NCBI GenBank assembly: GCA_964476015.1
Contig: CAYYZT010000002.1
Coordinates: 1-41,924, forward strand
From: an uncultured Chitinophaga sp.
GTDB taxonomy: Bacteria; Bacteroidota; Bacteroidia; Chitinophagales; CAIOSU01
Direction: 5' to 3'
Length of the DNA stretch: 41,924 nt
Part shown: positions 5,996-23,724 of the stretch, one piece after another
Position numbering within the stretch: the first letter of the stretch is position 1
Layout: each line of letters opens with the position of its first letter
Made by a program: the position numbers and the translations under genes
The notes under the pieces: model-generated
What the model saw: the letters and a program-made list of their open reading frames with translations, nothing else
Database searches by the model: none
What the model was told of the DNA's origin: nothing

Positions 5996-7345
5996 ATGGA
6001 TACCATAGTAGCCCTCTCCACCCCCCAAGGCACCGGTGCCATCGGCGTTATCCGGCTCTCCGGCCCCGATGCCATTACCATAGCCCACAAGGCATTCAAG
6101 GGTAAGGATTTAACGCTACAACCCGCCAATACACTGCATTTCGGTAGCATCGTTCGCAACGGGTTGGTTCTGGATGAGGTAGTCGTGGCCCTGTTCCGCG
6201 CCCCGCACTCCTATACCAAGGAGGACGTGGCCGAAATCTCGTGCCACGGCTCGCCCTACATCCTCCAACAAGTGTTGGAACTGTTGATAGAGCTCGGTTC
6301 CCGTCCCGCCAAGCCCGGCGAATTTACCCTGCGTGCCTTTATCAATGGCCGTATGGACCTAAGCCAAGCCGAAGCCGTGGCCGACCTAATCGCCTCACAG
6401 TCAGCCGCTTCGCACCGTCTAGCTATGCAACAGATGCGGGGCGGGTTCAGCAACCGCATCAAAGACCTCAGAACCAAGCTCATACACTTTGCCAGTATGA
6501 TTGAACTGGAACTGGACTTTGGGGAGGAAGACGTGGAATTTGCCGACCGAAACGACCTTCGGGTGTTGGTGGCTGAGCTTCAGGAGATTATAGGCAAGCT
6601 TATTCGTTCTTTCCAACTGGGCAATGTGCTTAAAAGTGGCGTGAGCACGGTGATTGCGGGCCGCCCAAATTCGGGGAAGAGCACGCTTTTAAACCGCCTT
6701 CTCCAAGAAGAAAGGGCCATAGTAAGCGATATACCCGGCACAACAAGAGACACCATTGAAGAAGCTGTAACCATTGCTGGCATTACGTTTCGACTGATTG
6801 ATACCGCTGGCATACGAGAGGCTACCGATGCCATTGAACGGATAGGGGTGGAACGTACTTTCCAAAAGATAAGCCAAAGTGCATTGGTGGTGTATTTGTT
6901 TGATGCTACCACGCTCACTATCAAAGAATTGCAACACGATTTGGCACGGTTGGGAAGTACCGTTCCGGTGCTGGTAGTGGGCAATAAGCTCGACACCATG
7001 GCTGAAAATGCTTTGCAACAATTTGACAACCAACAAATTATATTTATTTCCGCCGCTACTGGGGAGGGCATTGCCGAACTGGAAAACGCCTTAGTGCAAG
7101 CCATTGGCGCACAGGGCCTTACGGAAGAAGATACCATAGTATCCAACGCACGGCACTATAATGGACTATTAGCTACGCAAACCGCCCTGAACGCAGTGCT
7201 GCAAGGCATCGAAACCCGCATCAGTAGCGACTTTCTGGCCCTTGACATCCGCCGCGCCCTGCACCATTTGGGCGAGATAACGGGCGAAATAACCACTGAT
7301 GATTTGTTGGATAATATATTTAGTAAATTTTGTATCGGGAAGTGA
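5996..7345 (+). CDS. mnmE: tRNA modification GTPase MnmE (TrmE/ThdF)
   Basis: The gene starts at MDTIVALSTPQGTGAIGVIRLSG (ATG 5996). It has a G domain (GRPNSGKSTLLN, DTAGIR, GNKLD) and the invariant C-terminal FCIGK motif before the stop at 7343-7345. Confidence 0.92.
   Translation: MDTIVALSTPQGTGAIGVIRLSGPDAITIAHKAFKGKDLTLQPANTLHFGSIVRNGLVLDEVVVALFRAPHSYTKEDVAEISCHGSPYILQQVLELLIELGSRPAKPGEFTLRAFINGRMDLSQAEAVADLIASQSAASHRLAMQQMRGGFSNRIKDLRTKLIHFASMIELELDFGEEDVEFADRNDLRVLVAELQEIIGKLIRSFQLGNVLKSGVSTVIAGRPNSGKSTLLNRLLQEERAIVSDIPGTTRDTIEEAVTIAGITFRLIDTAGIREATDAIERIGVERTFQKISQSALVVYLFDATTLTIKELQHDLARLGSTVPVLVVGNKLDTMAENALQQFDNQQIIFISAATGEGIAELENALVQAIGAQGLTEEDTIVSNARHYNGLLATQTALNAVLQGIETRISSDFLALDIRRALHHLGEITGEITTDDLLDNIFSKFCIGK
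7328..7345 (+). repeat. attL core (last 6 codons of mnmE: TTTTGTATCGGGAAGTGA)
   Basis: The first 11 nt are identical to 23337-23347, and 14/18 positions match overall. Both copies translate to F-C-I-G-K-stop. Confidence 0.75.
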
Positions 7346-7439
7346 ATAATGAAAATAACATCCAATCAAAGGAAACAAAACACCTACAAATACAACATTT
7401 TAGATTCCCACTATTGTCTTTCATTTTTCCGATGGTTTC

Positions 7440-7507
7440 TTATTTTTTACACTTTTTTGCTTTATTTTTACACTAAATGGTTATTGAAGGTGTAAAAAGG
7501 TGTAAAA
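7440..7507 (+). promoter_or_regulatory. integrase-proximal repeat cluster (candidate arm-type sites or int operator)
   Basis: TTTTACAC occurs at 7445-7452 and 7466-7473. Its inverse GTGTAAAA occurs at 7490-7497 and 7500-7507, and the last copy overlaps the int ATG. The stretch 7440-7477 is repeated imperfectly at 23264-23300. Confidence 0.45.
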
Positions 7508-8637
7508 TGAAAGTCAAATTGATTAACAGAAAAACTAACAAAGGCGATAAAGCACCCTTTGTTTTAGAGGTCTATAAGGGCTATTCAAAAACAGACACGG
7601 GAAAGATTAAGCACAATCGTCAATTTGAAACCCTAGACTACTATCTATATAAGAACCCCACTACCCCACACCAGAAGCAGCATAATAAGGAGCATAAGAA
7701 GTTAGCGGAGGCGGTAAAGGCAAAAGTGGAATTGGAATTAGTAAACGGAACCTATGGATTTAGGTCTTCTCATAAGTCTAAACTTAGCTTGATTGAATAC
7801 TTCAAGAATCTAAGAGACGAAAGGAAGAAGAGCAAAAACAACTGGGATAACTGGCAGGGTACTTTCAAGCACCTACAGCAATATTGTTCAAGCCATGTTA
7901 CTTTGAATGACATAGATGTTGATTTTGTGGCCGGATTCAAAAGTTACTTAGATGAAACTGCTGTAAGGTCTTCTGGAGAACCTTTATCTCAAAACACAAA
8001 GTATTCTTATTTCAACAAGTTTAGAAAGTGCATAAATCAAGCGTTTGAGGATGGATTGATTACCGAAAACCCTTCAAAAAGAGTGAAAGCCTTTCGCATG
8101 GGCGAGCCTGACAGAGAATACTTGACTTTAGAAGAAGTTAAGTCCGTTTTTAAAGCAGAGTGTAGATATGATGTCCTAAAGAGAGCGTTTTTGTTTTCGT
8201 GCCTTACCGGAGTGCGTTGGAGCGATATTTATAAAATGACATGGAAGGAAATAAGGGAACAGGTAGGCTATTGGGAGTTTGCCTTTACCCAACAAAAAAC
8301 TAAAGGTGTCGAATATCAACCGATTAACGAAGAGGCTTTTAAGTTACTAGGAGCACCTAGGGGAGCAGATGAAAGGGTTTTTGCTGGACTTAAATATTCG
8401 TCATATACCAATGTAGCTATTAAAGATTGGATGTTAAAGGCTGGCATTACTAAACACATAACATTTCATTGTGCAAGGCATACCTATGCGATACTCCAAC
8501 TTGGAAGCGGTACGGATATATATACAGTATCTAAGCTACTGGGACATCGAGAGCTTAAAACCACTCAGATTTATGCTAAAGTTATGGATGATGCCAAAGT
8601 GAGTGCTGCTATTAATCTACCTAAAATAGGCATGTAA
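7507..8637 (+). CDS. site-specific tyrosine recombinase (phage integrase family, Bacteroidota type)
   Basis: The gene starts at MKVKLINRK (ATG 7507; the listed 7477 start is upstream and in frame). The C-terminal catalytic region has TGVRWSDI (Arg), HCARHTYA (H-x-x-R) and LLGHRELKTTQIYAKV (His and Tyr). The N-terminus resembles an arm-binding plus SAM-like domain. Confidence 0.88.
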   Translation: MKVKLINRKTNKGDKAPFVLEVYKGYSKTDTGKIKHNRQFETLDYYLYKNPTTPHQKQHNKEHKKLAEAVKAKVELELVNGTYGFRSSHKSKLSLIEYFKNLRDERKKSKNNWDNWQGTFKHLQQYCSSHVTLNDIDVDFVAGFKSYLDETAVRSSGEPLSQNTKYSYFNKFRKCINQAFEDGLITENPSKRVKAFRMGEPDREYLTLEEVKSVFKAECRYDVLKRAFLFSCLTGVRWSDIYKMTWKEIREQVGYWEFAFTQQKTKGVEYQPINEEAFKLLGAPRGADERVFAGLKYSSYTNVAIKDWMLKAGITKHITFHCARHTYAILQLGSGTDIYTVSKLLGHRELKTTQIYAKVMDDAKVSAAINLPKIGM

Positions 8638-9416
8638 TGGATAAGAGGAAGGCAAAGTTTGTTCGTTCCCATGAATTGTCAATGGGGCTTGTCGGAGTTT
8701 CGGAGGGTCTAGCTCAGGAAATTGAAAAAATGAATATGCGACTTGACCAACCTTATCTGAGTAACGAAGATTTGTCTATAGCAAGGTCAATGGTTAAGCA
8801 ACAGCTTGCACGATTTGAACAACTCGCAAAGATGTATGACGTATGTTATGGCGACTATGTAAAAGATAAGTTCAATTTCAAACCAGTACCTGCGGATTTT
8901 GCTAATTGGTTTTTTGATGGTCTTTCTATTAAGGTGTCACTAAACCCAGACATTCGATTTAGCGCAAAAGATTACTTAGAGTATTGTGCTCTGAAAAAGA
9001 AAGAGTTGGATAGTATTGCCGATACACTAAATAAAAGAGAGGTTCAAAAGCTACTTACTAAGGAGGACAAAAAGGAGATTATAGAATCTCATTTAAAATT
9101 CATGAATGGTGTGAACCCTTCTCAAGAAAGTATACTAACCCCAAATGACTATGAATGGCTTTTATCAAAAACGATAGAATTAGTTGAAATAGGGGAATGC
9201 CCAACTATTGAAAAAGCTATCAGACCTAAAATTTCAGCTACATCAATTAGCTATACATTCTACCTTATACATAAGGAAATCTTTACCACAAGACCCATTA
9301 GAGATGGTTTTATTGACTTCTTAAATAGGGCGTTTAAACAATTTGCCAATACCGAATGGACAACTATAAAAACTAAATTCAGTGTCAAGCATAAAGGATT
9401 TCCGTACCAGCAATAG
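8637..9416 (+). CDS. hypothetical protein (259 aa), translationally coupled to the integrase
   Basis: Its ATG overlaps the integrase stop (TAATG at 8635-8639). It shares the AT-rich codon usage of the island. I recognised no motif. Confidence 0.55.
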   Translation: MDKRKAKFVRSHELSMGLVGVSEGLAQEIEKMNMRLDQPYLSNEDLSIARSMVKQQLARFEQLAKMYDVCYGDYVKDKFNFKPVPADFANWFFDGLSIKVSLNPDIRFSAKDYLEYCALKKKELDSIADTLNKREVQKLLTKEDKKEIIESHLKFMNGVNPSQESILTPNDYEWLLSKTIELVEIGECPTIEKAIRPKISATSISYTFYLIHKEIFTTRPIRDGFIDFLNRAFKQFANTEWTTIKTKFSVKHKGFPYQQ

Positions 9417-9430
9417 GTAACACTTTTCTT

Positions 9431-9459
9431 TCTTACCATATTCTTACCAATATCTTACT
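9431..9459 (+). promoter_or_regulatory. three helically phased direct repeats TCTTAC(C/T) upstream of the xis-like gene
   Basis: TCTTACC occurs at 9431-9437 and 9442-9448, and TCTTACT at 9453-9459. The spacing is exactly 11 bp. The cluster lies 26 nt upstream of the ATG at 9485. Confidence 0.4.
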
Positions 9460-9484
9460 TGCCTTATTTGCTTTCGTAATCAAA

Positions 9485-9796
9485 ATGAAAGCGATGGCAG
9501 ACCTATTAGCATTAGAACAACGCTTGGAGCGAATAGAAAACCTGTTACTTAATCATAAGGAGGTTTTCAATCTAGATGAGGTAGCGCACTATACTAGCCT
9601 ATCAAAGTCATATCTCTATAAACTCACTTCTACAGGCGGAATACCTTGCTATAGACCTAAGGGTAAGCATCTCTATTTCAAGAAGACAGAAATTGATGAA
9701 TGGTTATTATGTAACCGGATTAGGACTAACGAGGAAATTGATTTGGAAGCCTCCTCAAAAGTTACTTTAGGTAAACACTCCTTTAATAAGGCGTAA
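9485..9796 (+). CDS. helix-turn-helix DNA-binding protein, excisionase/AlpA-like (HTH_17 type)
   Basis: The segment FNLDEVAHYTSLSKSYLYKLTSTGGIPCYRPKGKHLYFKKTEIDEWL matches the MerR-superfamily excisionase HTH pattern that is common beside Bacteroidota integrases. Confidence 0.75.
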   Translation: MKAMADLLALEQRLERIENLLLNHKEVFNLDEVAHYTSLSKSYLYKLTSTGGIPCYRPKGKHLYFKKTEIDEWLLCNRIRTNEEIDLEASSKVTLGKHSFNKA

Positions 9797-9817
9797 CTGT
9801 CCCCCATTTTGGCGACA

Positions 9818-10774
9818 ATGATAGATTCCATATCCATATCAAAACAACTCACTCAAGAGGAGCTGAATATCATTCTTAGTAACTTAAAAGTTAAAGAGGA
9901 GTTGGTTAATGCTAATACTGGAGAGGTGCGAGTAAATGCAAAAGTTGACGAGGTCATTTCAATTTATATAAGGGGAATCCACATGCAATTATGGGGGAGT
10001 TTATCCCAGTTTTATATTGGTAGTAGGGTAACATCCTTACGATGGGGTCAAGTGTCAAAAGCTTTTGAAAGGCTCGAAGAGAAGTTAGGGGTAGAATTAG
10101 GCACAAGCTACTTCACTCGACTGGACTTAGAGGCTACCATGTCCTTACCACATAAAACGAAAAGTTATTTTCCCTACCTAGGAGAACATAAACACTATAA
10201 TAGATTCCAAGATAGAACCACCTTGTATTATTCCAACTCATCCAGGCAAATTTGCATTTATGATAAGGGTTTGGCCTTAGACCCTATTGATAGAAGTTTT
10301 ATTCCAGAACACCAATCCCTTATGCGCTTTGAGGCAAGATACAAATGGAGATTTTTAAAGCGGCTCGCCAAGAATAGAGGAGTGGAAAAGATTAGTGTTA
10401 CGAATATACTAGACCCTACTTTTCAGGAAACCCTAATTGGTTTATGGTTGGCAGAATATAATAGTATTCCCAAGTACCATAAACTCCAGTTTAATATGGA
10501 AAAAGTAGGCAGTGTTAAGGAATTAAAACAAGCACTTGAAGCACATGCTATAGATAGCTTAGGCGGGGTGCATGAAGTTATAAGCATGATAGAAAGAGCT
10601 AGAGCAACAAACATTCAACTAGATAGGAAAATTGCAAGCAAAATGAAGTCTACAATAAGGGCATATACACAACAAACTGACATCGCTATCTCTAGCCCCC
10701 ATATAGCAGAACTAACTATTGCCATATCAATAGCGTACATCGAAAACTTACTAAGTATAAATGAAAGCTACTAA
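9818..10774 (+). CDS. rolling-circle replication initiator-like protein (Rep_trans / phage gene II-X-like)
   Basis: Three ordered motifs resemble the Rep_trans signature: FTRLDLEAT, TLYYSNSSRQICIYDKG and LMRFEARYK. The first ATG is at 9818; the listed start at 9809 is a TTG. Confidence 0.5.
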   Translation: MIDSISISKQLTQEELNIILSNLKVKEELVNANTGEVRVNAKVDEVISIYIRGIHMQLWGSLSQFYIGSRVTSLRWGQVSKAFERLEEKLGVELGTSYFTRLDLEATMSLPHKTKSYFPYLGEHKHYNRFQDRTTLYYSNSSRQICIYDKGLALDPIDRSFIPEHQSLMRFEARYKWRFLKRLAKNRGVEKISVTNILDPTFQETLIGLWLAEYNSIPKYHKLQFNMEKVGSVKELKQALEAHAIDSLGGVHEVISMIERARATNIQLDRKIASKMKSTIRAYTQQTDIAISSPHIAELTIAISIAYIENLLSINESY

Positions 10775-11126
10775 AGCTATATTGTTAACAAGATTAAAAG
10801 ATGTGGCTGCCTATCTTATTGAAGGAAGAAGTAGGGAGTTTATAGTGCAATATGGTTCAGAAAACTGGGAAATAGGAGAACGACAAGCTGACAATTATAT
10901 TAAACAAGCCAGAGATCTTATCGCAAAAGAAGTAGTAAATGATGTAAAGTATGACTTTGCCAAAGCTCTTAAGCGGTTTGAATATCTGTACAATCAGTCG
11001 ATTCTGAAAAATGATATTAAAACCGCTATGGCAATAAATAAAGAAATAGCCAATCTACAGGGGTTGTACAAAACCCAGATAGAGCAAAGCGGAGAGGTGG
11101 TATTTATAAGTAACATACCGGATTAG
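10761..11126 (+). CDS. hypothetical protein (121 aa); its position suggests a small terminase or DNA-binding accessory protein
   Basis: It overlaps the Rep-like gene by 14 nt and ends 23 nt before the TerL-like gene. I recognised no motif, so the functional suggestion rests on position only. Confidence 0.45.
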   Translation: MKATKAILLTRLKDVAAYLIEGRSREFIVQYGSENWEIGERQADNYIKQARDLIAKEVVNDVKYDFAKALKRFEYLYNQSILKNDIKTAMAINKEIANLQGLYKTQIEQSGEVVFISNIPD

Positions 11127-11149
11127 GATAAAAAAAGTAACTTTTTTGA

Positions 11150-12505
11150 ATGAGGATTGACTTTAGCCAATACTACCAACCAAAGCTCAAGCAGACCATA
11201 GCCCACAGCACGAGGGCAAAATACCTGCTATTCGCTGGTGCGTTTGGTGCTGGCAAAAGCTGGTTTCTTTGTACGGAAGCCATAAAGAATGCCCTAAAAT
11301 TCAATGGCAATAGGCTGGTCATTGTCAGGAAGGAGTTATCGGTTATGAAGCGCACAATCCTTGTTACGTTCTTTTCCGTATGCCCTCCGCAACTCATACG
11401 CTCCTTTAATCAGAGCAAAATGGAAGTTACTTTTGTCAATGGCTCTGTACTGACCTTTATTGAGGCCAATGTCTCGAAAGACCCGTTACTAAATAAGTTG
11501 AAAGGGCTGGAAATTGGCTGGTTTGGTATTGATGAAGCCAATGAGGTCAATGAGGAGGTATTCAGGATATTGAAAACCCGCCTTAGATGGGTATTGCCCA
11601 ATAATACGAGGCCACGCTACGAGGGTAGGCTAACCTCTAATCCAGAAAATTGCTGGTTAATACCTGCCTTCATACATTCTACTGACCCCAACCAAGTTTT
11701 TATTCAGTCCATCACAACCGATAACTACTCCGAAGATGACGAGTATGTAGTGAATTTGAAGAATGCCTTTAAGGATAGCCCTAACCTGTATAGAAAGTAC
11801 TTGTTAGGGGATTGGACAAATCTTGACAGCATCAATCAGCTTATATCCAATCTGTCAATATCAAAGGCTGCTGCAAACCTTGAAAATGGCTTTGGAACAT
11901 CTATGGGTGTGGATGTGGCAAGGTTTGGAGGCGACAGTACCGTTTTTACGGTGTTACAGGACGGCAATGTGGTTCTAGTGGAGGATTATGTGGAAACATC
12001 CATAAACGAAGTTGTAACCCGTGCTATAGCTCTTATGGAAAAATTTAGCATCACAGCCGATTGGGTCGGAGTTGATGCAGTAGGTATCGGGGCTGGAGTA
12101 GTGGATAACCTTCGTGCAAGTGGCTATTATGTTCAAGAGATACAGGGAGGCGCAAAACCTGCCGAACTTGAAACGGATGAAGCATTCAAACCCCATAACC
12201 TTCGTGCTCAAATGTACTGGGAGCTGAAAAGGGATATTGATGCAGGTAATATTGGTAACATTACACATCCTACCCTAAAGCACGAACTTTCTATCATTCG
12301 CTATGAGATAATGTCTGACAAGACCGTAAAAATCCTTAGTAAAGAAGCATTAAAAAAGCTATTAGGTAAAAGCCCAGACTTTGCTGACAGCCTTGCCTAT
12401 GCGAATTGGGTAAAAACCCATAGAGGGGCGTATCCTTATGCTTTACCCATATGTGGTGGTGCCGACGAAACAGATAGCAATTCCCAATGGGGCTATTGGA
12501 GATAA
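11150..12505 (+). CDS. phage terminase large subunit-like protein (Terminase_6 / PBSX type)
   Basis: It has Walker A (FAGAFGAGKSW), Walker B (WFGIDEANEV) and a coupling motif (LTSNP). The C-terminal RNase-H-like nuclease carries acidic motifs GVDVARFGGDSTVFTV, VGVDAVGIGAGVVD and SPDFADSLAYA. Confidence 0.8.
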   Translation: MRIDFSQYYQPKLKQTIAHSTRAKYLLFAGAFGAGKSWFLCTEAIKNALKFNGNRLVIVRKELSVMKRTILVTFFSVCPPQLIRSFNQSKMEVTFVNGSVLTFIEANVSKDPLLNKLKGLEIGWFGIDEANEVNEEVFRILKTRLRWVLPNNTRPRYEGRLTSNPENCWLIPAFIHSTDPNQVFIQSITTDNYSEDDEYVVNLKNAFKDSPNLYRKYLLGDWTNLDSINQLISNLSISKAAANLENGFGTSMGVDVARFGGDSTVFTVLQDGNVVLVEDYVETSINEVVTRAIALMEKFSITADWVGVDAVGIGAGVVDNLRASGYYVQEIQGGAKPAELETDEAFKPHNLRAQMYWELKRDIDAGNIGNITHPTLKHELSIIRYEIMSDKTVKILSKEALKKLLGKSPDFADSLAYANWVKTHRGAYPYALPICGGADETDSNSQWGYWR

Positions 12506-12594
12506 TAAACGACTAATTCAAAGATGAAATTTGTAAATTTGGGGCAAACTAAAACAAAGTCATTATAGGGTAAGCTAACGATATACATATAGAT

Positions 12595-12756
12595 ACTGCG
12601 TATGCAGGTCATTGCTCCGTTCAAATACTGGTAATATTTCACTCAAAGGCAAATGACTGTGTAACGCACCCGGCTGGGTGTGTACACTTCATTGCTTTTG
12701 TAGGTTATACCAGTAACCTGAACGGAGGATGTAGTGTTACACACCCTCTTTTTTAA
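12595..12756 (+). other. highly structured non-coding segment (candidate ncRNA, leader, or ori/pac site) ending in a T6 tract
   Basis: An outer helix pairs CTCCGTTCA..TACTGG (12615-12631) with CCAGTA..TGAACGGAG (12710-12727). An inner hairpin spans 12652-12694: AATGA-GTGTA-CACCC, loop GGCT, then GGGTG-TACAC-TCATT. A competing pairing joins GGTGTGTA (12677-12684) with TACACACC (12739-12746). TTTTTT lies at 12749-12754. No ORF covers the segment. Confidence 0.35.
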
Positions 12757-12776
12757 CCACAATTAATGTATCTATT

Positions 12777-14024
12777 ATGAACGCTGGTACAACCAACTCT
12801 AAAAGCACTATTTTGACAGTTCTAAAATGGATTGGAGCATCAATTTTCTTGTTGTCCTTTCTTATGGCCTTAATCAAGGATTTTGCTGTAATTTCAGCCC
12901 TGCTCTTTTTGCTTGGGGGATTGATTCTGCTGCCCCCGATGTCGGCCTTTTGGCAGTCGAAAGTAAAGTTACTTTCAAACAGGCCAGTCAAGGTTATTCT
13001 TTTGTTGATGCTCTTTGTTGCAGGGTTTGTTACCAATCCCAATGCAGGTAAACACAGCGCAAGGAATGAAACGACAAAAAGCGGAAGTGCCTATCAAGCA
13101 TATATTGACCAGACTGAAAAGAATATAAACGGCCTTTCGCAAGAACGCAAAACCCAGAGGGAGAAGATGTATGGGGAGCTAAAGGGAAATCCTATCTATT
13201 TGTCATTGGTGGAACAGAAAGAAGTTTCTACGGAATACTTACCAGTGCTACATGCTATCGCAAACGGAATTAGCCACACAGTGACAGACCAGTTTTCAAT
13301 TGATGAAGAATTGATGAAACAGATAGGGGCTTCCACCAACGGCAGCGATAAAACCCGTTTTGTGGCCGTTGTAGTAGCTTTAGCTGGCAAAGCGAACGGT
13401 GGTGTTCCAAATGAGGTAATTGAGGTCTTTGAACGCTATAAAAACGCTTACCGTATGTATGGGAGTAAAGGGAGTGTGGTTGTAACCGCTAGCGGTCAAC
13501 AAACCACTATTCCAAATGATTTTGACCTGTCTCCGTTTTTCGGAATGGTTGACCCTAAGAATCCAGAAGTATTGAACAGTATTTACGAAGCAAAACAGAA
13601 GAAACTTTCAAGCTGGCCAAATACCCAGCACCCCACCTTTCCTCACTTGGCTTCCAAGACAGGTTACATGAACCACGTAAGAAGTGTTTATCCCGATAGC
13701 CCTTACCTATTGAACGTGGACTATGAAGTAACCGCTTCACAACTTTATGCTTCTTATGACGGCAATGAAGTGGCTGCTGACGAAAAGTATAAAGGTAAGA
13801 AACTGGCAGTAACGGGCATTGTTGGAAACATCTCCAAAGGTATTTTCGATGAAGCCATTGTAAGCCTAGAAATAGGTTTTTTACAAAACATTAATTGTGA
13901 TTTTGGAGATAATACAAAAGCTGTTTCTCGTTTGAGTAAAGGTGACAGAATTACAATTATTGGGAAGTGCGAGGGGTTTATTTTAAGTCAAGTGATATTG
14001 GGAGATTGTGAGGTGTGGCAATAA
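12777..14024 (+). CDS. membrane-anchored protein with C-terminal OB-fold (tRNA_anti-like) domain
   Basis: The N-terminus has 3 hydrophobic helices (IGASIFLLSFLMALI, ISALLFLLGGLILLPP, VILLLMLFVAGFV). The C-terminus reads YEVTASQLYASYDGNEVAADEKYKGKKLAVTGIVGNISKG...GDRITIIGKCEG, typical of the tRNA_anti-like OB-fold family. Confidence 0.6.
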   Translation: MNAGTTNSKSTILTVLKWIGASIFLLSFLMALIKDFAVISALLFLLGGLILLPPMSAFWQSKVKLLSNRPVKVILLLMLFVAGFVTNPNAGKHSARNETTKSGSAYQAYIDQTEKNINGLSQERKTQREKMYGELKGNPIYLSLVEQKEVSTEYLPVLHAIANGISHTVTDQFSIDEELMKQIGASTNGSDKTRFVAVVVALAGKANGGVPNEVIEVFERYKNAYRMYGSKGSVVVTASGQQTTIPNDFDLSPFFGMVDPKNPEVLNSIYEAKQKKLSSWPNTQHPTFPHLASKTGYMNHVRSVYPDSPYLLNVDYEVTASQLYASYDGNEVAADEKYKGKKLAVTGIVGNISKGIFDEAIVSLEIGFLQNINCDFGDNTKAVSRLSKGDRITIIGKCEGFILSQVILGDCEVWQ

Positions 14025-14064
14025 TAATCTGCTTTTATAAATTGTTCAATACACAATAGATGCA

Positions 14065-14091
14065 TTTGATTTAAATAATTTCCTACTTTTG
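14065..14091 (+). promoter_or_regulatory. possible Bacteroidota sigma-A type promoter for the three-gene operon
   Basis: TACTTTTG (14084-14091) fits the TAnnTTTG -7 consensus and lies 22 nt before the ATG at 14114. TTTG at 14065-14068 is a possible -33 element, but the 15-nt spacing is shorter than the usual ~19. Confidence 0.3.
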
Positions 14092-14113
14092 ACCCTTGCT
14101 AATAATTATAGTT

Positions 14114-16432: not shown

Positions 16433-16443
16433 CATTGAAAATC

Positions 16444-17931
16444 ATGGCTTATCAACCTATCGTGAAAGATATAGAGACATCTATTTTGAAGATTAATGAA
16501 CTTCAACTCGCTTCCTCTTTTGAGATAAAAATGGAAGGCCACTATCTTCATAATGCCGTTTTCGAAATTACCAAAGGGAAAAGGCAATATAACTTTTCAT
16601 CAAGTTCGTCTATACCTCATGGCTTGCAAACACATAAAGAACTTCAATTTGATAGGGAAACGCCAATAGAATTGCATAAGACTAATCAATCTTTATTTGT
16701 ATTGGGAAAGCACCTATTTATCAATAACATATCCTACAATGAAGATTTCACATTAAAGATTTTTTCTGGCGGTATTTCAAGTTTCTCCACTGCCACAGAC
16801 TATAAATTGTTTGACAATAAGTTTTTGAGGTTCATTATGCCAGTGGGAGAAAAACATCCATTTACAATTACCGAATTTCAACATCACTATTTAATTTCCT
16901 CAAGCAAAAAGTCCTCAAATTATATTCCTTTAAAAATTTCGGAACAAGAGTTAAATTTTATCGAATATAAGCTTGGTAACCAGTTTTATCTGATTATTGA
17001 TTGTGTGCAGCCAGATTTATTGGTTCAATTTCAGAAGAAATGTTTCAATATTCTCTTGGCTCTAGGTTTTATTAAAGGAAAACTGTTCCATGATGAATGC
17101 TATATAGCAGCCTTTGATGATATTAAAATGGAAGTTCCAGAAAATATTTTGTATAACTCAATGCGAGCATCCGTGAAATCGGGTCAGGCAACGTTCACAT
17201 CAAATCCATATTCAGTTTATCATGACTACGAACTGGAAATGAACGAGGACGGAAAGACAAAACAACAAATGATTGATGAGCTAAATAAAGAGATGATTTT
17301 TTTTCCAATTGCGGTATTCTCTAACCTAGCGACAATGTTTTTTGAGCAAGAAAAGCTCCAGAGGGCAGCACTAATCTACATTCAAAGTCACATTGCTTCT
17401 TTGGAAGTCAGAATTCCTAACTATTATGTCGCTCTTGAAGCCATAACAGGTTTTGTTTCAAAAGAATTATCTACGGAGAAAACATCTTATAACCCAATAA
17501 GAAATAAGAAAATAGCTGACGATTTGATTTCTGAAATTACCACACTAGCCAAAAATAAAAAAGCAGAGATGGGTTTAGGAGATGAAGATTTTAATTTGGG
17601 GATATTATTGAAAAATATTGGAAAATTAAATGCTCCTCCAAATGCAGATAAGCTTTCTGGGGGATTCAGCCATGTAAAATATGAGCTATCGAGAGAGCAA
17701 AAAAGCATCCTTGTCAATCGTAATACATTTTTACATGGTAGCTTTTTAAAAGTTGCTGGAGATGACAACCAATTTAAAGAGGCTTTACATGTAGCATTGC
17801 GTTTGCATCTAATGATAGCGGTGTTGTTTTATAAACTTGCTGGATTTTCAGGGCGGATTATCAATTACGCAGAACTATGGTCACATATTACAGAAAAAGA
17901 TTTAAAAGAGGAAAGGCTTGTTAAAATATAG
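16444..17931 (+). CDS. unknown protein with C-terminal HEPN-like Rx4H motif (candidate RNase)
   Basis: The gene begins 12 nt after the stop of the upstream gene (a TTG at 16435 is even closer). The C-terminal helical region contains LVNRNTFLHGSF (R at 17719-17721, H at 17734-17736), the RNxxxHG form seen in Abi-type HEPN domains. The N-terminal ~330 aa are unassigned. Confidence 0.5.
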   Translation: MAYQPIVKDIETSILKINELQLASSFEIKMEGHYLHNAVFEITKGKRQYNFSSSSSIPHGLQTHKELQFDRETPIELHKTNQSLFVLGKHLFINNISYNEDFTLKIFSGGISSFSTATDYKLFDNKFLRFIMPVGEKHPFTITEFQHHYLISSSKKSSNYIPLKISEQELNFIEYKLGNQFYLIIDCVQPDLLVQFQKKCFNILLALGFIKGKLFHDECYIAAFDDIKMEVPENILYNSMRASVKSGQATFTSNPYSVYHDYELEMNEDGKTKQQMIDELNKEMIFFPIAVFSNLATMFFEQEKLQRAALIYIQSHIASLEVRIPNYYVALEAITGFVSKELSTEKTSYNPIRNKKIADDLISEITTLAKNKKAEMGLGDEDFNLGILLKNIGKLNAPPNADKLSGGFSHVKYELSREQKSILVNRNTFLHGSFLKVAGDDNQFKEALHVALRLHLMIAVLFYKLAGFSGRIINYAELWSHITEKDLKEERLVKI

Positions 17932-17935
17932 AGAT

Positions 17936-19492
17936 ATGGAAACCTCAAAGTTGCTTTCATTTGTCGAAGACCTTTTTCATAAAGAACAATTTGATGAGGC
18001 ACATCTCTTAATCAAGGAAGCTATTGCATCCATCAGTGTTGACTCTAGTTCTGAATCCTTTTTCTACCAAATTAAATTGCATTGTTTGTTGATTGATATT
18101 GGCTGGCGAAATTTGGAAGAGAGTGATTTTAGTGTGGCCATATGCTTTTTTGAGCAAAATGAAGAGAAAATATTAAGCTGCATAGAGAAAGTTAGCTATT
18201 ACTATAATTTAGCTAATGCTAAGGCTGGGGTGAGCAAAGCATATCACAAGAAAAACTTGGGGGTTCATAGTCTTGATGAGACCAAAGCTATCCACCAAGA
18301 ACCCATCCGATTGTATTGGCTTGCCTATAATAATTGCTCAAAGAATTCACGACTACTTCCACAGATATTGATAAATCTTTCCGGTGCATTGGTAGAAGTT
18401 GCTCGACTAACTGAAGCCTTGCAGTTTTTAGACATAGTACTCAGAACTTATCCCACATTTCCAGAAGCATTGGTGTCTAGGGGCGATTTTCTGTATTGGT
18501 GGGATTTAGTTACTAATAGTGCTGATACTGTAGCTCTTAAAGTTCAAACATATGCCTCTTATGATGCTGCAATCAATACTAATGCGTTGCCAAGCTATAT
18601 CCTTGAGAAGTGCATAAATGCAAAGGCAGAGGCATTGCATTCAATGCAGGAGCATGGTTTTGATGCATCCGACATTGAAGAAGAGTTGGTTGAAACGCAA
18701 GTTGAGTTTGATAAGCACTCTAAATATCGACAATATTGTCTCGACAATTTTTTGACCTTAAATGAACACGGTATCTATTGTAAATGCGTGGCTACTGAGA
18801 AAGATGATTTGCAAATAGGTGTAAAATATGCCTTGTTCAAATTAAAGTCGCTACCTCACTTAGAAGTACTGTTAAACAGGATGAAGTCTGAATTTGCACT
18901 TGCTAGATGGCTATATTACCAATCAATATCAAAGGAAACTACTGTCGAAAATGATGTTCTATTTTCAGAGCTTTATGACGGTGAAGCTATCAGCTACCAT
19001 AATGAAATGCAAAGGGCAAGTTTTCGACTTTGCTATGGGATACTTGACAAAATAGCACTTGGAGTTTGTAAATTATACAATCTGGATAGCCACCATATTC
19101 AGTTTGAAACATTTTGGGAAAACAAGAAAAGAAAACCGGAGCTTGACCAAATTAAAAACATCCATTTAAATGCTCTTTATAGCATAGCGTGTGATTTAAA
19201 TTCAAAGACAGGAGAATTGCGCCAATTTAAGTTGTGGCGTAATGACCTAGAACATAACTTTCTGCTTTTAAAGGATAGCTCTAAATTCAATCTGGACATT
19301 TTCGGTATTCATCTTGACAAAGAATTTGTTGAGGTTGTGGATTCAATAGATTTCGAGAAGAAATGCTTGCATTTATTACAGTTGACCAGAGCAGCAATAT
19401 TCAGCTATGTACATTGTGTTCGACTGCAAACTATTGAGCATCCCAATGAAGAAATTGAAAAAAGATCTGTACAAATTGGCTTCAAGGAATAG
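17936..19492 (+). CDS. helical-repeat (TPR-like) protein with C-terminal LA2681-like HEPN domain
   Basis: The ATG lies 4 nt after the upstream stop. The N-terminal half is alpha-helical repeat-like. The C-terminal motif FKLWRNDLEHNFLLL (R at 19238-19240, H at 19253-19255) is the RNxxEH HEPN signature, and a TPR plus HEPN layout is described for the LA2681 family. Confidence 0.55.
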   Translation: METSKLLSFVEDLFHKEQFDEAHLLIKEAIASISVDSSSESFFYQIKLHCLLIDIGWRNLEESDFSVAICFFEQNEEKILSCIEKVSYYYNLANAKAGVSKAYHKKNLGVHSLDETKAIHQEPIRLYWLAYNNCSKNSRLLPQILINLSGALVEVARLTEALQFLDIVLRTYPTFPEALVSRGDFLYWWDLVTNSADTVALKVQTYASYDAAINTNALPSYILEKCINAKAEALHSMQEHGFDASDIEEELVETQVEFDKHSKYRQYCLDNFLTLNEHGIYCKCVATEKDDLQIGVKYALFKLKSLPHLEVLLNRMKSEFALARWLYYQSISKETTVENDVLFSELYDGEAISYHNEMQRASFRLCYGILDKIALGVCKLYNLDSHHIQFETFWENKKRKPELDQIKNIHLNALYSIACDLNSKTGELRQFKLWRNDLEHNFLLLKDSSKFNLDIFGIHLDKEFVEVVDSIDFEKKCLHLLQLTRAAIFSYVHCVRLQTIEHPNEEIEKRSVQIGFKE

Positions 19493-19690
19493 GAACATTT
19501 TCAATAGTATCTAATAAAACACTTCCTTTGAATACTTGCTCGGAACTACATTGATATATCTAGTACTGCCAATTACTTTTTAAATAGTGTCCTGCTAGGT
19601 GGTCGCTTGCACACAGTACATTTTAAAAAGAATTGGTATGCTAGTTGATTTACCCTAACCATTAACTAACTTTACCAGAATAACTAGGGT

Positions 19691-20689
19691 ATGAATCAAA
19701 GTCTCCTTACAAGATTATTCAAAACAATAGACGGTAATGAAGCATCACCTATTGTAAGGATAGCGTACAGTATAATTGAAGATGAAAAGCGTAAAGGTCA
19801 TGTCAAGCTTGCGGAAAAATTAAGAGCGATACTTTCAAGCAATCTAAGTAAAGAACAACAACTCAAGCCAATTCGCTCTTTATCAAAAGAAGGAACTTTT
19901 AAAGTCCCTGTTGATAGACGTTATAGGCTTCCATTAGCTTCCCATGTTGAACATGAACATTTGCGCCATGACATGATTCTCTCTCATTCTGTAGAAGAAA
20001 AAATTGTAAGAATTGAGAAGGAGTATCTAGCTAGGGAACGTTTAGCACACCATGGCTTAAAGCCTCGTAAAAAGATTCTGTTTTATGGTTCTTCCGGCTG
20101 CGGAAAAAGCATGGCTGCTGAAAGAATTGCTTGGGATTTGGGATTACCCTTCTATAAAGTCAGATTCGACTCAATAATCTCGTCATACCTCGGAGAGTCC
20201 GCTGCCAATCTTCAAAAACTTTTTGATAGTTTAGAAGACTTTCCATGTGTTTTGCTATTAGATGAATTTGACATTATTGGTAAGCAAAGAAATCTAGGCT
20301 CTAATGATGTAGGTGAAATCCATAGGATTGTAAATATTTTATTAGGACTCCTTGAAGAATATAGTGGGGAAGGGATATTAATAGCAACAACTAACTTAGA
20401 AGGTAGTTTAGATAAAGCACTTTTTAGGAGATTTGATGATATTATTGAATTACCAAAGCCATCTGACGTTGAAATTCTTGAACTATTAAAAACGTCATTT
20501 TCGGCATTGAAACTTAATAAAAAGATTGACCTTCATACTTATGCAAAGAAGATGGAAGGTTTATCCTATGCTATTGTCGCTAAGATAGCTAGCGATGCTG
20601 CAAAAAAATCAGTAATTCGTTCCAGTACCGTTATAGAGGCCGACGATTTAAATGTTGCGTTGGAAGAGAACTTTACTATCAATCACTAA
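19691..20689 (+). CDS. AAA+ ATPase (classic AAA clade), IetA-like
   Basis: It has Walker A (FYGSSGCGKSMAA, 20087-20110), Walker B (VLLLDEFD), sensor-1 (IATTNL) and an Arg-finger region (ALFRRFD). An S8 protease gene starts 7 nt downstream. Confidence 0.8.
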   Translation: MNQSLLTRLFKTIDGNEASPIVRIAYSIIEDEKRKGHVKLAEKLRAILSSNLSKEQQLKPIRSLSKEGTFKVPVDRRYRLPLASHVEHEHLRHDMILSHSVEEKIVRIEKEYLARERLAHHGLKPRKKILFYGSSGCGKSMAAERIAWDLGLPFYKVRFDSIISSYLGESAANLQKLFDSLEDFPCVLLLDEFDIIGKQRNLGSNDVGEIHRIVNILLGLLEEYSGEGILIATTNLEGSLDKALFRRFDDIIELPKPSDVEILELLKTSFSALKLNKKIDLHTYAKKMEGLSYAIVAKIASDAAKKSVIRSSTVIEADDLNVALEENFTINH

Positions 20690-20696
20690 TATATAA

Positions 20697-23162
20697 ATGG
20701 AGCCCTTCCCGCATTTAAGGTTTCTTCAAAAAATAATTGGTCGACCTCGACTTCATGGAGGTGGTGAGCAAAATGAAAGGTCAGAAGAAAATAAACGTAA
20801 TCGTTCTGGCCATAGTGGCATCCTCTTGGGCAGTGTAGGTAACATTAAGGATAGTTGGGGTGAAGAGTTTGATAATCGGGAGGAACAAGGTCTTGCACCG
20901 ATTGAAAAAGAGGTTGTACCTGTCTTTCTTCAAGTTAATCCTGGTTTAGTTGAAATGGTTGAATTCAACTTACACCAGCTAGGAATTGAGATAATATCGC
21001 AGCAAGACGATGGATATATAATAGGAGCTTCATTAGATGGATTGAGGTCATTAGAGGAAAAAATTAATGGATTCGTCAACCATACCCATGGCACTGGAAG
21101 AATAGCTGAACTATGGGAAATCATATCAGGTGATAGAGCCTTATGGAAACCAGAGCATATATTATCCGAAGAGCTATTTTTGAAATGGCCAGAAATTGAT
21201 GACAATAGAATTTATCACTTAGAAATCTCTATTGCCTTTGATAGACCCATCAGAGCCGAGCCTAGTCCCGATGTTCGGGGATATGCCACTAAGTTAGAAA
21301 GATACCAGCAAGCACTAATTGATAGAGATGAGCAGTTAAGAAGTAGAGAACAACATTTTGAGGATTTCATTCGGCATTATGGAGAAATCACAAGTTCTAT
21401 TATTGAACTGGAAGATAGCTTTGGATGTGAAGTAGCTATAACAGGTCAAGGCTTAAAAGATTTAGTCGTAAATTATCAATTTGTATTTGAAGTATCTGAA
21501 GTTGAAAAAATTGAAGGAGTTATAGGGAATGAGGTAGAGGCCGAGGATTTTGATATTGAAGTAATTCCTCCAACTGAAAACGCTCCTGAGGTTGGGGTAA
21601 TAGACAGTGGGATAATGGAAAATCACAAGTATTTATCCCACGCAATTATCCCAGCAAACTCAGTATCCTACCTTACTGATACTTCAACTGCGGATAAAGT
21701 ATTGGGTGGAGGACATGGTACTAAAGTTGCAGGAGCCATCTTATACCCCAAAGGCGTATCTGTTGTGGAAGCACCATATCAACTTCCTTGTTACATTAGA
21801 AATATCAGGGTACTTGATGAGAATAATAAACTAGTTGATATTTATCCGACAGACCTTATCCATAGAATAGTTCATGATAATACGCCTTGTTCGATATTTA
21901 ATCTCTCTATCAATTCCACTGCTCCCTTTAGACTAAAACACATGTCTTCTTGGGCTGCGATGTTGGATTCTCTAACCCATGACAAAGGTGTATTGTTCAT
22001 AATTTCTGCTGGCAATATAGGCAAACAACAAATCCTACACTATTTATCAAATGGTCAAGAATATCCCTTATTTCTACAAGAACCTAATTGCAGGTTAGCC
22101 AACCCTGCTCAAAGTAGCTTTTCCCTAGTAGTGGGTTCGGTAAACATCGCTACACTCGATAATGAACATTGGGTTTCTTTGGGGAATGAATTGGAGGTAT
22201 CTCCATTCTCAAGAATAGGGACTGGAATTTGGGGTATGATTAAACCTGATGTTGTTGAATATGGAGGTGGTTTGGCTATAAGTAAGAATACAACCCCCAG
22301 TCTTACCGAAAAACCAGAGATTTCCCCCGAGTTGATACGTTCCACTTATCATGGAGGCCATGCTATTGGAAAGGATGCTGTAGGGACATCCTTTTCCACC
22401 CCCAAAGTATCGCACATAGTTTCTCAACTCAAAATGCTTTACCCCGAGGAAAATGTAAACTTACTAAGGGCTCTAGTAGTACAATCCGCAAGATTGCCTC
22501 GTAATTTTTTTGAAGCTCCTGTATTAGACCATATACGCTTTTTCGGATATGGCATACCTCAACTGGAAAGAGCTACTATAAACAATGAGCATCGAATTAC
22601 TTTTTACAACACTGGTCAGTTGAGGGCAGAGGAAGGGCATTTGTACTTGCTTAAAATTCCTGAAGAATTATATGACCCAACAAATGAGTATGATATTTTG
22701 TTGGAAGTTACTTTGGCGTACAGTGCCAAAGTAAGACGCACTAGACAAAAAACGAAATCATATTTAGCTACTTGGTTAGACTGGGAAACATCAAAAATGG
22801 GAGAAACGTTTGGCGAGTATCAAAACTATGCTTTAAGAGAAATTGAAAATACGGCCACTGCGTATGATCGAGATTTACGAAATGGTTTGGAAACTTTTGA
22901 CTGGAAAATAAAGAATCGTTTAGATTCAGGAAGTGTAACTGGTATTAGAAGAAATGACAGCACTGTTCAAAAAGATTGGGCTATCGTAAAGTCTTTTGAT
23001 TTGCCCGAAGAAATTACTTTTTGCATCCGTGGGCATAAAGGTTGGGACAAAAATCGAGAGGAAGTCCCTTACGCACTTGTTGTTTCAATTGAAATACTCG
23101 GTTCTAATATCCCAATATATGAGTCGATTAGAATAGAAAATGAGATTGAGCTACCTGTATAG
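20697..23162 (+). CDS. S8 family (subtilisin-like) serine peptidase with long unassigned N-terminal region, IetS-like
   Basis: The catalytic triad is in S8 order: Asp in VGVIDSGI (21603-21605), His in GGGHGTKVAGAI (21714-21716) and Ser in GTSFSTPKVSH (22389-22391). About 300 aa precede the protease domain. No signal peptide is evident. Confidence 0.8.
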   Translation: MEPFPHLRFLQKIIGRPRLHGGGEQNERSEENKRNRSGHSGILLGSVGNIKDSWGEEFDNREEQGLAPIEKEVVPVFLQVNPGLVEMVEFNLHQLGIEIISQQDDGYIIGASLDGLRSLEEKINGFVNHTHGTGRIAELWEIISGDRALWKPEHILSEELFLKWPEIDDNRIYHLEISIAFDRPIRAEPSPDVRGYATKLERYQQALIDRDEQLRSREQHFEDFIRHYGEITSSIIELEDSFGCEVAITGQGLKDLVVNYQFVFEVSEVEKIEGVIGNEVEAEDFDIEVIPPTENAPEVGVIDSGIMENHKYLSHAIIPANSVSYLTDTSTADKVLGGGHGTKVAGAILYPKGVSVVEAPYQLPCYIRNIRVLDENNKLVDIYPTDLIHRIVHDNTPCSIFNLSINSTAPFRLKHMSSWAAMLDSLTHDKGVLFIISAGNIGKQQILHYLSNGQEYPLFLQEPNCRLANPAQSSFSLVVGSVNIATLDNEHWVSLGNELEVSPFSRIGTGIWGMIKPDVVEYGGGLAISKNTTPSLTEKPEISPELIRSTYHGGHAIGKDAVGTSFSTPKVSHIVSQLKMLYPEENVNLLRALVVQSARLPRNFFEAPVLDHIRFFGYGIPQLERATINNEHRITFYNTGQLRAEEGHLYLLKIPEELYDPTNEYDILLEVTLAYSAKVRRTRQKTKSYLATWLDWETSKMGETFGEYQNYALREIENTATAYDRDLRNGLETFDWKIKNRLDSGSVTGIRRNDSTVQKDWAIVKSFDLPEEITFCIRGHKGWDKNREEVPYALVVSIEILGSNIPIYESIRIENEIELPV

Positions 23163-23263
23163 TTCTATTATTACGATAATGGTAGGTAAATTACCTTTAT
23201 CTTTATCTAGAGAAATAACTGGTGAAATCACTAAGTAAGTTGAGTTTTTCTCATTCTCGTCTT

Positions 23264-23300
23264 TTATTTTCTCCTTTTTTGCTCCTTATTTACACCTAAA
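23264..23300 (+). repeat. island-internal imperfect direct repeat of 7440-7477 (candidate arm-type site near attR)
   Basis: TTATTTTCTCCTTTTTTGCTCCTTATTTACACCTAAA aligns with TTATTTTTTACACTTTTTTGCTTTATTTTTACACTAAA. Most positions match, with about 3 one-nt gaps in a by-eye alignment. Confidence 0.45.
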
Positions 23301-23336
23301 ATATCACAACTAATTGGTTTTCAGTTGTTGTTTACT

Positions 23337-23354
23337 TTTTGTATCGGAAAATAG
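23337..23354 (+). repeat. attR core (displaced copy of the mnmE terminal codons: TTTTGTATCGGAAAATAG)
   Basis: This is the direct-repeat partner of 7328-7345. It reads F-C-I-G-K-stop but has no ORF upstream of it. Composition returns toward host-like shortly after. Confidence 0.75.
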
Positions 23355-23357
23355 CTC

Positions 23358-23465
23358 AAAAACGGTTTTGCGGCATTTTGAGACATTTTTGCGGCATTTT
23401 TATCGTAAAAACGGCCCTTTTTGAGACATTTTGCGGCATTTTGAGCTATTGCGGCATTTTTTTGA
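23358..23465 (+). repeat. phased short repeat array: TTGCGGCATTTT x4 interleaved with TTGAGACATTTT x2
   Basis: Exact TTGCGGCATTTT copies lie at 23368-23379, 23389-23400, 23431-23442 and 23449-23460. TTGAGACATTTT lies at 23378-23389 and 23421-23432. AAAAACGG occurs at 23358 and 23407, which suggests a higher-order duplication of about 49 bp. The array lies directly after attR. Confidence 0.7.
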
Positions 23466-23511
23466 GGTATAATGTCTCTAGGTGGGTGGCAACGATCGAT
23501 TTTTGGTCTCC

Positions 23512-23724
23512 CTATCCGAAAAGTTGCCCGATTTCCATTTCCAACGCTTGGCTTATTTTGAGCAGGGTGCCCACGGTGGGGTTGGTGCGGCCCTTCTCCA
23601 GCCGCACGATGTTGGTGGCTTCTATATCGCACCTATAGGCCAACTGCTGTTGCGTAAGGCCCTTCGCCTGCCTGAGAGCGGCTATTCTTTGCCCAAGATT
23701 GGTTAGCACTTCCTGTTTGTCCAT
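23512..23724 (-). CDS. XRE-family helix-turn-helix transcriptional regulator
   Basis: The sequence LGQRIAALRQAKGLTQQQLAYRCDIEATNIVRLEKGRTNPTVGTLLKISQALEMEIGQLF is a canonical HTH_3 domain. The gene is divergent from the MmeI-like gene. An alternative start lies at 23742. Confidence 0.8.
   Translation of the reverse strand: MDKQEVLTNLGQRIAALRQAKGLTQQQLAYRCDIEATNIVRLEKGRTNPTVGTLLKISQALEMEIGQLFG

Follow-up and report, generated by a model that had tools for sequence, protein, structure and literature searches.

A defence-loaded, putatively satellite-like integrative element at the mnmE 3' end of an uncultured Chitinophaga sp., and its apparent kinship with the integration module of SGI1-type islands

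The CTnDOT integrase is relaxed in its choice of site, and that of NBU1 uses the 3' end of a tRNA-Leu gene. Islands of the SGI1 (Salmonella genomic island 1) family, which are major carriers of multidrug resistance, are found at the end of mnmE: the sequence TTCTGTATTGGGAAGTAA has been published both as the DR-L of SGI1-K and as the attL of MGIVchHai6 (PMC11237444, PMC4958241), and the SGI1 integrase was assigned by Smyshlyaev et al. to a Bacteroidetes-dominated IntCTnDOT subgroup (PMC8138268). No discussion of the origin of the SGI1 recombination module was found in the literature searched, and within the same, incomplete coverage we found no paper in which mnmE serves Bacteroidota or their phages as an attachment site; Riemerella's RAP44 island is described at a tRNA-associated site. 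Here we analyze a 41,924-nt stretch of DNA from an uncultured Chitinophaga sp. of the Bacteroidota (contig CAYYZT010000002.1 of assembly GCA_964476015.1, positions 1 to 41,924; hereafter the window), in which the first-pass annotation had placed a 16-kb island in the last 18 bp of mnmE. Our results point to an integrative element at 7346-23336 that its own integrase would have placed in the mnmE 3' end, with a satellite-like life cycle and defence cargo, a reading to which we assign a probability of about 0.88. What is new here is an apparently SGI1-type integration module in Bacteroidota, joined to a satellite-like, defence-loaded backbone.

Two 18-bp direct repeats, the attL and attR cores of Table 1, bracket the element, and their earlier description was confirmed: they agree in the first 11 nt (TTTTGTATCGG) and in 14 of 18 positions overall, and both copies encode F-C-I-G-K-stop. 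In 42 kb an 11-mer repeat carries no significance by itself, but TTYTGYATHGGNAARTRR, the degenerate F-C-I-G-K-stop pattern, has exactly two matches in the window against 0.01 expected from shuffles, and these are also the only two in the whole assembly (3.59 Mb, 498 contigs), where the control gave no match. The interval between the repeats measures 16.0 kb and has a G+C content of 37.4%, compared with 50.2% for the genome, which is below that of all 67 other 16-kb windows of the assembly (their minimum being 37.8%). It holds 12 open reading frames (ORFs), all on the plus strand and separated by short gaps, of which the first encodes a tyrosine integrase; the AT-rich, single-strand gene block noted at first reading is borne out in each of these respects.

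The mnmE gene itself is intact, and its product is 70-80% identical along the full length to the MnmE proteins of genus relatives. The mnmE ends of all five genus relatives have the Gly codon GGA, as in attR, and in one of them (G004) the native end is exactly GGAAAATAG, identical to attR with the last 7 nt included. The attL sequence GGGAAGTGA, by contrast, resembles GGGAAGTAA, the attL of the nearest related element (L026), whose attL core is TTTTGTATCGGGAAGTAA. Because attR matches the genus relatives and attL matches this related element, the element appears to supply the last 7 nt of the working mnmE (GAAGTGA), which would derive from the island, while the native end is preserved as attR. 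This fits a strand exchange inside the shared 11 nt, and the same behaviour has been reported in SGI1 relatives for the last 9 bp of the repeat (PMC9035990). In another genus relative (G005), contig C131 (L025, 1-5796) carries a second, more divergent copy of the last 123 mnmE codons at a short-contig end, reflecting either strain heterogeneity in a metagenome-assembled genome (MAG) or a longer surrogate mnmE end.

To place this locus in a wider context, 80 related loci were retrieved from species-representative genomes with an alignment of 31 integrase homologues; they span the Flavobacteriales, Chitinophagales, Cytophagales, Sphingobacteriales and Bacteroidales, together with a few Gammaproteobacteria. 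In 75 of the 80 the integrase homologue sits 120-770 bp past the mnmE stop codon on the same strand, and for three of the five others the upstream sequence is too short to judge. Five small elements of 4.7-6.5 kb, composed of int, HTH_17/xis and a Rep homologue, each lie between their own mnmE 18-mer and a second copy of it. Across the 29 whole genomes with such loci, the strict 18-mer pattern has 58 matches, compared with 6 for a reversed-pattern control; in 13 of these genomes the 18-mer recurs on the same strand at a distance of 8-51 kb downstream of mnmE, and a single genome has it three times. Linkage of the integrases to mnmE and the paired 18-mers both support the proposal, already made for this window, of a site-specific insertion into the last 18 bp of mnmE with the gene end rebuilt, and on sequence grounds we regard such an insertion as very probably the mechanism of integration. 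The genome with three copies is a Sphingobacterium (L044/G047, contig 26, 237798-287482), where the three same-strand 18-mers past mnmE are spaced 31.9 and 17.8 kb apart in an apparent tandem array of two elements at one site.

The same signature is seen in viral contigs. Among the IMG/VR contigs with homologous integrases, 28 have at least 1.5 kb upstream of int and no MnmE homologue there, and in 21 of these an 18-mer precedes int by no more than 900 bp (by 144-430 bp where the distance was measured). Unrelated DNA precedes the 18-mer in all 14 contigs viewed, with in-frame stops in 10, which is the form expected of an attP site or of a junction between two elements. Of 5425 complete E. coli genomes, about 800 show a break in the sequence match across mnmE/tnaC that falls exactly on the stop of mnmE, and the two genomes inspected (L192, 12301-15007; L193, 4248-6965) have a 2.7-kb integrase-less islet there, one gene of which is annotated as a type III effector family member; because of this break and this islet, the mnmE 3' end can be seen as a variable junction in E. 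coli too. These split junctions were considered as a source of SGI1-type integrases and dropped, since the common split is the integrase-less islet.

A locus suited for comparison with SGI1 came from a match in a phage collection (OR850969.1, L194, from a Salmonella Kentucky phage preparation). Its mnmE is 95% identical to that of E. coli and ends in TTCTGTATTGGGAAGTAA. After it come an integrase gene (405 aa), an excisionase gene on the opposite strand (122 aa) and a gene for replication. From the att sequence, the gene lengths and the host, we infer that this is the left end of an SGI1-family island; its DNA had no match in E. coli complete genomes. The integrase of the window is 43% identical to this 405-aa Int over 381 residues (E 1e-108), arm-binding domain included, and the excisionase aligns with the 122-aa Xis over 76 aa at 29% identity (E 6e-14), both being of the HTH_17/excisionase type. 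In a tree rooted on four IntCTnDOT-like integrases not adjoining mnmE, all mnmE-linked integrases from both phyla form one clade (SH-aLRT 95), in which the SGI1-type Int groups with three gammaproteobacterial mnmE-linked integrases (SH-aLRT 100). This quick tree nests the group among the Bacteroidota sequences; since an approximately unbiased (AU) test leaves a placement as their sister unrejected (p 0.50), we make no claim on which way the module was transferred.

Since Int and Xis are homologous and the mnmE-linked integrases form one clade, the shared target is best read as inherited rather than convergent: use of the F-C-I-G-K-stop site would have come with one int/xis module shared with SGI1-type islands. 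The first-pass annotation had likened the target to the SGI1-family site, which the published TTCTGTATTGGGAAGTAA supports, and had proposed that an unrelated element came to use it convergently or from ancient times. The phylogenetic placement that it called for does not support the unrelatedness and speaks against convergence, with the SGI1-type Int falling inside the one mnmE clade; ancient use of the site stands, and only the backbone apart from int and xis is unrelated. A view of the SGI1 integrase as P4/DUF4102-type and unrelated was likewise rejected in the light of its published assignment (PMC8138268) and the 43% identity. The remainder of the island backbone has nothing detectable in common with SGI1, as searches with Pfam, NCBIfam, PHROGs and PADLOC found no match among the 12 ORFs to traN/traG/traH, mpsAB with oriT, sgaCD or the Rep_3 replicase, and excision or mobilization triggered by IncA/IncC plasmids (AcaCD) is implausible in a Bacteroidota host. 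The SGI1-type int/xis pair sits in a far larger mnmE-dedicated clade, mostly from Bacteroidota, of prophages, minimal elements and defence islands. Two gammaproteobacterial MAGs carry integrases of the clade beside their own mnmE (~57% identical to E. coli MnmE at the protein level): in one (L036, 5822-11872) this is an int-xis-rep element of 6 kb and 34% G+C that resembles those of Bacteroidota, and in the other (L054/G055, 1876555-1912858) an insert of 36 kb, with 61% identity between its integrase and the SGI1-type Int.

The integrase seems to be active as judged from its sequence. It has the arm-binding, SAM_5 core-binding and catalytic domains with the R-K-H-R-H/W-Y signature that characterize the IntCTnDOT subgroup, and R237, K264, H321, R324, H347 and Y356 are invariant across the 31 homologues; its reading frame is open from 7477, and the start in relatives corresponds to 7507. 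The T-rich TTTACAC and GTGTAAAA motifs listed in Table 1 are plausible arm-type sites for the arm-binding domain, and the TTTACA/GTGTAAAA arrangement before int is kept in position in three related loci (L026, L029, L112). The HTH_17 gene after int is kept in most of the 80 loci. For the replication initiator, an AlphaFold model (pLDDT 87) has as its best matches in the Protein Data Bank (PDB) 4cwe and 4cwc, the RepDE/RepD initiators of S. aureus (probability 1.00, E 3e-7). PDB sequence searches with Rep and TerL returned nothing useful. TerL is full length, and 26 homologues show no variation in the Walker A and Walker B motifs or in the acidic residues of the nuclease. With the four databases named above, none of the 12 ORFs was recognized as a gene for a capsid, portal or tail protein, for lysis, or for a relaxase or coupling protein. 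That the element is intact and possibly excisable is plausible, the catalytic residues being invariant and all ORFs open.

Table 1. Features of the mnmE locus and of the putative integrative element, with positions in the window.
Feature	Position	Strand	Evidence and remarks
mnmE, tRNA modification GTPase, intact	5996..7345	+	complete Pfam TrmE_N, MMR_HSR1, MnmE_helical; start 5996 inferred from translation
attL core TTTTGTATCGGGAAGTGA	7328-7345	+	end of MnmE reading frame; 11-nt TTTTGTATCGG common to attR
Candidate arm-type integrase sites	7441..7511	.	TTTTACAC twice in direct orientation (7445-7452, 7466-7473); GTGTAAAA-like inverted copies 7489-7511, overlapping int start
Tyrosine integrase, IntCTnDOT/SGI1 type	7507..8637	+	Pfam Arm-DNA-bind_5 (PF17293), Phage_int_SAM_5 (PF13102), Phage_integrase (PF00589)
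259-aa protein	8637..9416	+	no match in Pfam, PHROGs, NCBIfam, PADLOC; weak homologue only in L026
Excisionase-like HTH_17 protein (candidate Xis/recombination directionality factor)	9485..9796	+	Pfam HTH_17, NCBIfam 'excise' domain
Rolling-circle replication initiator, Rep_trans/Phage_CRI superfamily, 321 aa	9809..10774	+	weak Pfam Phage_CRI match
121-aa all-helical protein, TerL partner	10761..11126	+	47-51% identical homologues directly upstream of TerL in L199, L201, L203
Large terminase subunit TerL, full length	11150..12505	+	PHROG 2 (E 2e-35), Pfam Terminase_3
Protein with C-terminal tRNA_anti-like OB fold, Sie-like	12777..14024	+	Pfam PF12869; PHROG 8545 'Sie-like' (phage superinfection exclusion)
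DUF4365 (nuclease-like) fused to dynamin-like GTPase, defence candidate	14096..16432	+	Pfam DUF4365, Dynamin_N; weak PADLOC LeoBC/LeoA matches
498-aa protein, same apparent operon	16435..17931	+	no family match (Pfam, PADLOC, PHROGs, NCBIfam)
HEPN_LA2681-domain protein, predicted RNase, defence candidate	17918..19492	+	Pfam PF18733, E 2e-40
IetA, AAA+ ATPase of Iet defence system	19691..20689	+	PADLOC IetA E 3e-74; Pfam AAA
IetS, S8 subtilase of Iet defence system	20697..23162	+	PADLOC IetS E 3e-56; Pfam Peptidase_S8
Right-end T-rich ...TTTACAC repeat, candidate arm-type site	23260..23295	+	repeat family D3, 75% identity; also at 7438-7473
attR core TTTTGTATCGGAAAATAG	23337-23354	+	probable displaced original mnmE end; non-mnmE DNA precedes
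Host-side flank, dispersed repeat copy (TTTTGCGGCATTTT/TTTTGAGACATTTT units)	23358..23475	+	begins 4 nt past attR
XRE-family gene (minus strand) and complete MmeI-type IIG restriction-modification enzyme	23512-26623		directly outside attR

TerL homologues 57-87% identical to that of the window occur in more than 100 clusters, and TerL is kept together with its 121-aa partner (47-51% identity) in numerous genomes of Bacteroidota. Three of these neighbourhoods were inspected (L199, L201 and L203, in which the 121/122-aa gene and TerL lie at 9622-11344, 9296-11341 and 9428-11311). They share the same short order of integrase, an unknown protein of ~210-250 aa, HTH_17, a protein of ~250-330 aa, a 122-aa protein, TerL and a few cargo genes, without virion genes, and they differ in their integrases and in their sites (one beside tRNA-Ser, one beside tmRNA, and one site not identified). 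The closest terminases outside this group are 27% identical (cultured phages) and 34% identical (IMG/VR). The 121-aa protein (model pLDDT 80) is a small-terminase candidate by position only, and together with TerL it looks like the mark of a family of islands that have a terminase and no capsid genes and swap their integration modules, the copy in the window having the mnmE module and a large defence cargo; the pair, with its 121- or 122-aa partner, may represent an undescribed Bacteroidota satellite family. The gene content also agrees with a broad definition of phage-inducible chromosomal islands (PICIs), given an integrase, a replication module, packaging gene(s), no virion or lysis genes, and a size of 16.0 kb within a range of ~5-20 kb. 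We consider the island most likely to be phage-satellite-like, an assignment favoured from gene content only.

The distal 10 kb of the element would constitute anti-phage cargo, formed by the Sie-like OB-fold protein, the DUF4365-dynamin GTPase, the HEPN protein and IetAS. The genes for IetA and IetS are adjacent and 8 nt apart, the arrangement by which the Iet (IetAS) anti-phage system is recognized. For the host, mnmE would in this way be a hotspot of defence-gene acquisition.

We suggest the following course of events. The heterobivalent tyrosine integrase encoded by the element would insert 7346-23336 into the mnmE 3' end, starting from an attP that holds an 18-nt copy of the universally conserved mnmE end (F-C-I-G-K-stop) about 150 nt upstream of int. 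Recombination with the 18 nt of the chromosome would occur inside the first 11 nt, so that mnmE would end in the element's codons GGG AAG TGA and stay intact, and the original end GGA AAA TAG would be displaced 16 kb downstream as attR. The predicted attB junction is ...TTTAGTAAATTTTGTATCGG joined to AAAATAGCTCAAAAACGG, and the predicted attP junction ...GTTGTTTACTTTTTGTATCGG joined to GAAGTGAATAATGAAAATAAC. Xis and Int could then excise a circle, which the Rep_trans-like initiator may replicate by the rolling-circle mode, and TerL with its 121-aa partner may direct packaging into the capsids of a helper phage, these being invoked because the element is without virion genes of its own.

An unlikely alternative accepts the same integration and differs in what follows it: the element would be an integrative mobilizable element (IME), whose Rep could act instead as a MobT-like relaxase nicking an oriT, with the circle moved by a co-resident Bacteroidota conjugative element in the way that SGI1 moves on IncC plasmids, and with TerL as cargo, serving for example to interfere with phage packaging. 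Rep does fold like RepD/Rep_trans initiators, whose relatives include both relaxases and replication initiators in integrative and conjugative elements (ICEs) and IMEs (PMC5704250), the int/xis module is common to mobilizable SGI1-type islands, and the minimal 4.7-6.5 kb members hold only int, xis and rep and no terminase. However, the 12 ORFs gave no sign of a coupling protein, an oriT or any other gene for transfer, MobT relaxases have been described for Firmicutes elements and not for Bacteroidota (PMC5704250), and the retention of TerL and its partner in many capsid-less islands with different integrases, at a TerL identity of 57-87%, argues for a core role over incidental cargo. Decay of a prophage at mnmE, with virion and lysis genes deleted, defence genes in place, and the repeats left as scars of an immobile remnant, appears improbable. 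The same integrase clade is present in 30-100 kb viral contigs and 25-51 kb prophage-like inserts, and TerL is a phage gene in an island where no other virion gene is present; yet 12 of 12 ORFs are open and co-oriented with short gaps, the catalytic residues of the integrase are intact, and the set of int, xis, rep, 122-aa gene, TerL and small cargo recurs as complete units of 7-15 kb at other att sites with TerL strongly conserved. With the nearest phage TerLs only 27-34% identical, the terminase is also no recent leftover of a known phage type.

Scarcely credible is a reading in which the second 18-mer matches by accident, or through a duplication of unrelated origin, and the low-G+C block was acquired in some other way, with its boundaries elsewhere. 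It can draw on the identity of no more than 11 nt, a length that recurs by chance in 42 kb, and on the low G+C content, which continues more weakly to about 26640. Against it stand the rarity of the full 18-mer pattern, which is expected 0.01 times per window and present nowhere else in 3.6 Mb, the position of attR at a change in composition and at the start of a host repeat, and the same configuration across dozens of genomes with homologous integrases. Elsewhere in the assembly, the host repeat, made of TTTTGCGGCATTTT/TTTTGAGACATTTT units, is present on other contigs in at least 43 more copies; exact 12-mer units number 51, spread over 39 loci (0.4 expected), and the repeat was not found in five same-genus genomes; the phased array beside attR belongs to a species-specific family, REP- or MITE-like in appearance. 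Because this genome-specific dispersed repeat starts 4 nt after attR, the DNA to the right of 23354 appears to be of chromosome type.

Several observations weigh against the integrative, satellite-like element that we favour and should be kept in mind. A further 3.3 kb past attR is also foreign-looking (43% G+C) and without a flanking repeat of its own, so that the history of the locus was more complex than one insertion; this XRE and MmeI segment could be a second foreign segment stacked at mnmE, and it does not qualify as another such island with a recognizable attR, as no third copy of the mnmE end was found beyond the MmeI gene in the window. Genes of normal G+C content (DUF1801, recR) resume from 26666. 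No genome of the same species was found, and neither an empty site, an attP junction nor an excised circle was seen for the source genome; exact-protein look-ups found the MnmE and Int of the window on record nowhere else, and two exact-pattern scans of metagenomes, for the host flank of attR and for the species-specific mnmE end, returned 0 matches. The comparison with island-less relatives that had been proposed earlier came out in part: four genus relatives have an mnmE that ends in the same 18-mer with no integrase downstream, and because of these the element seems to be variably present in the genus, but the five same-genus genomes (mnmE ~70% identical) show no synteny on either side of mnmE, with RecR 300 kb from mnmE in one of them (G004), and thus offer no direct attB comparison and no syntenic empty site. 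The SGI1-type reference locus is an 'UNVERIFIED_ORG' record. As to the satellite part, a fold search with the model of the 121-aa protein gave no significant match, and in IMG/VR viral contigs a single-protein scan found none of the island-type TerL clade and a profile scan nothing above 34% identity, an absence that neither supports nor excludes packaging; moreover, in contrast to described phage satellites, no helper phage is known for this element.

A wider proposal can be made, which we offer tentatively and at somewhat less than even odds: the mnmE 3' end would be a cross-phylum site of one int/xis lineage, serving prophages, minimal elements and defence islands and acting as the source or the recipient of the module of SGI1 and MGIVchHai6, and the element would represent an undescribed class of Bacteroidota satellites with their own TerL and 121-aa partner, swapping modules among mnmE, tRNA-Ser and tmRNA sites. 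Were this true, it would be a new type of satellite that loads anti-phage systems, in a phylum with none characterised. For annotation in Bacteroidota a simple rule suggests itself: an integrase of this clade after mnmE, together with the next F-C-I-G-K-stop 18-mer, delimits a mobile element.

With SGI1 and MGIVchHai6, mobilizable islands of Gammaproteobacteria, the element shares the last 18 bp of mnmE as target, imperfect 18-bp direct repeats that keep F-C-I-G-K-stop (attL TTCTGTATTGGGAAGTAA there, TTTTGTATCGGGAAGTGA here), and an int gene adjoining attL, with Int and Xis homologous as described above; as in SGI1 relatives, on the attR side the distal, variable half of the repeat goes with the host, and tandem arrays form at the site (PMC9035990), to which the genome with three copies found here may be compared. 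It differs from SGI1 in the phylum of its host and in the lack of tra genes, mpsAB, sgaCD, the Rep_3 replicase and a resistance integron, in place of which it has a Rep_trans-like rolling-circle initiator, a terminase and, where SGI1 has genes for antibiotic resistance, anti-phage cargo; in the SGI1-type locus Xis is on the opposite strand, whereas in the window it is co-oriented with int. The N-terminal arm-binding, SAM_5 core-binding and catalytic domains are those of the CTnDOT and NBU1 integrases, from which the clade of the window differs in its dedication to mnmE, and CTnDOT lacks the canonical first catalytic Arg (PMC8138268) that this clade keeps as R237.

The likeness to phage satellites, including PICIs, capsid-forming PICIs (cf-PICIs), P4-like elements and the marine VEIMEs, lies in the size of ~16 kb, the absence of capsid, tail and lysis genes, and the order of integrase, excisionase or AlpA-like helix-turn-helix (HTH) protein, replication initiator, packaging gene(s) and accessory or defence genes, as well as in the use of the 3' end of a conserved gene, with siblings that have the same TerL module at tRNA-Ser and tmRNA. 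Classical PICIs redirect packaging by a small terminase or by Rpp/Ppi, while the island of the window has a full-length TerL and a 121-aa partner; cf-PICIs also carry capsid genes, of which it has none, and its Rep is a rolling-circle initiator rather than a primase-helicase.

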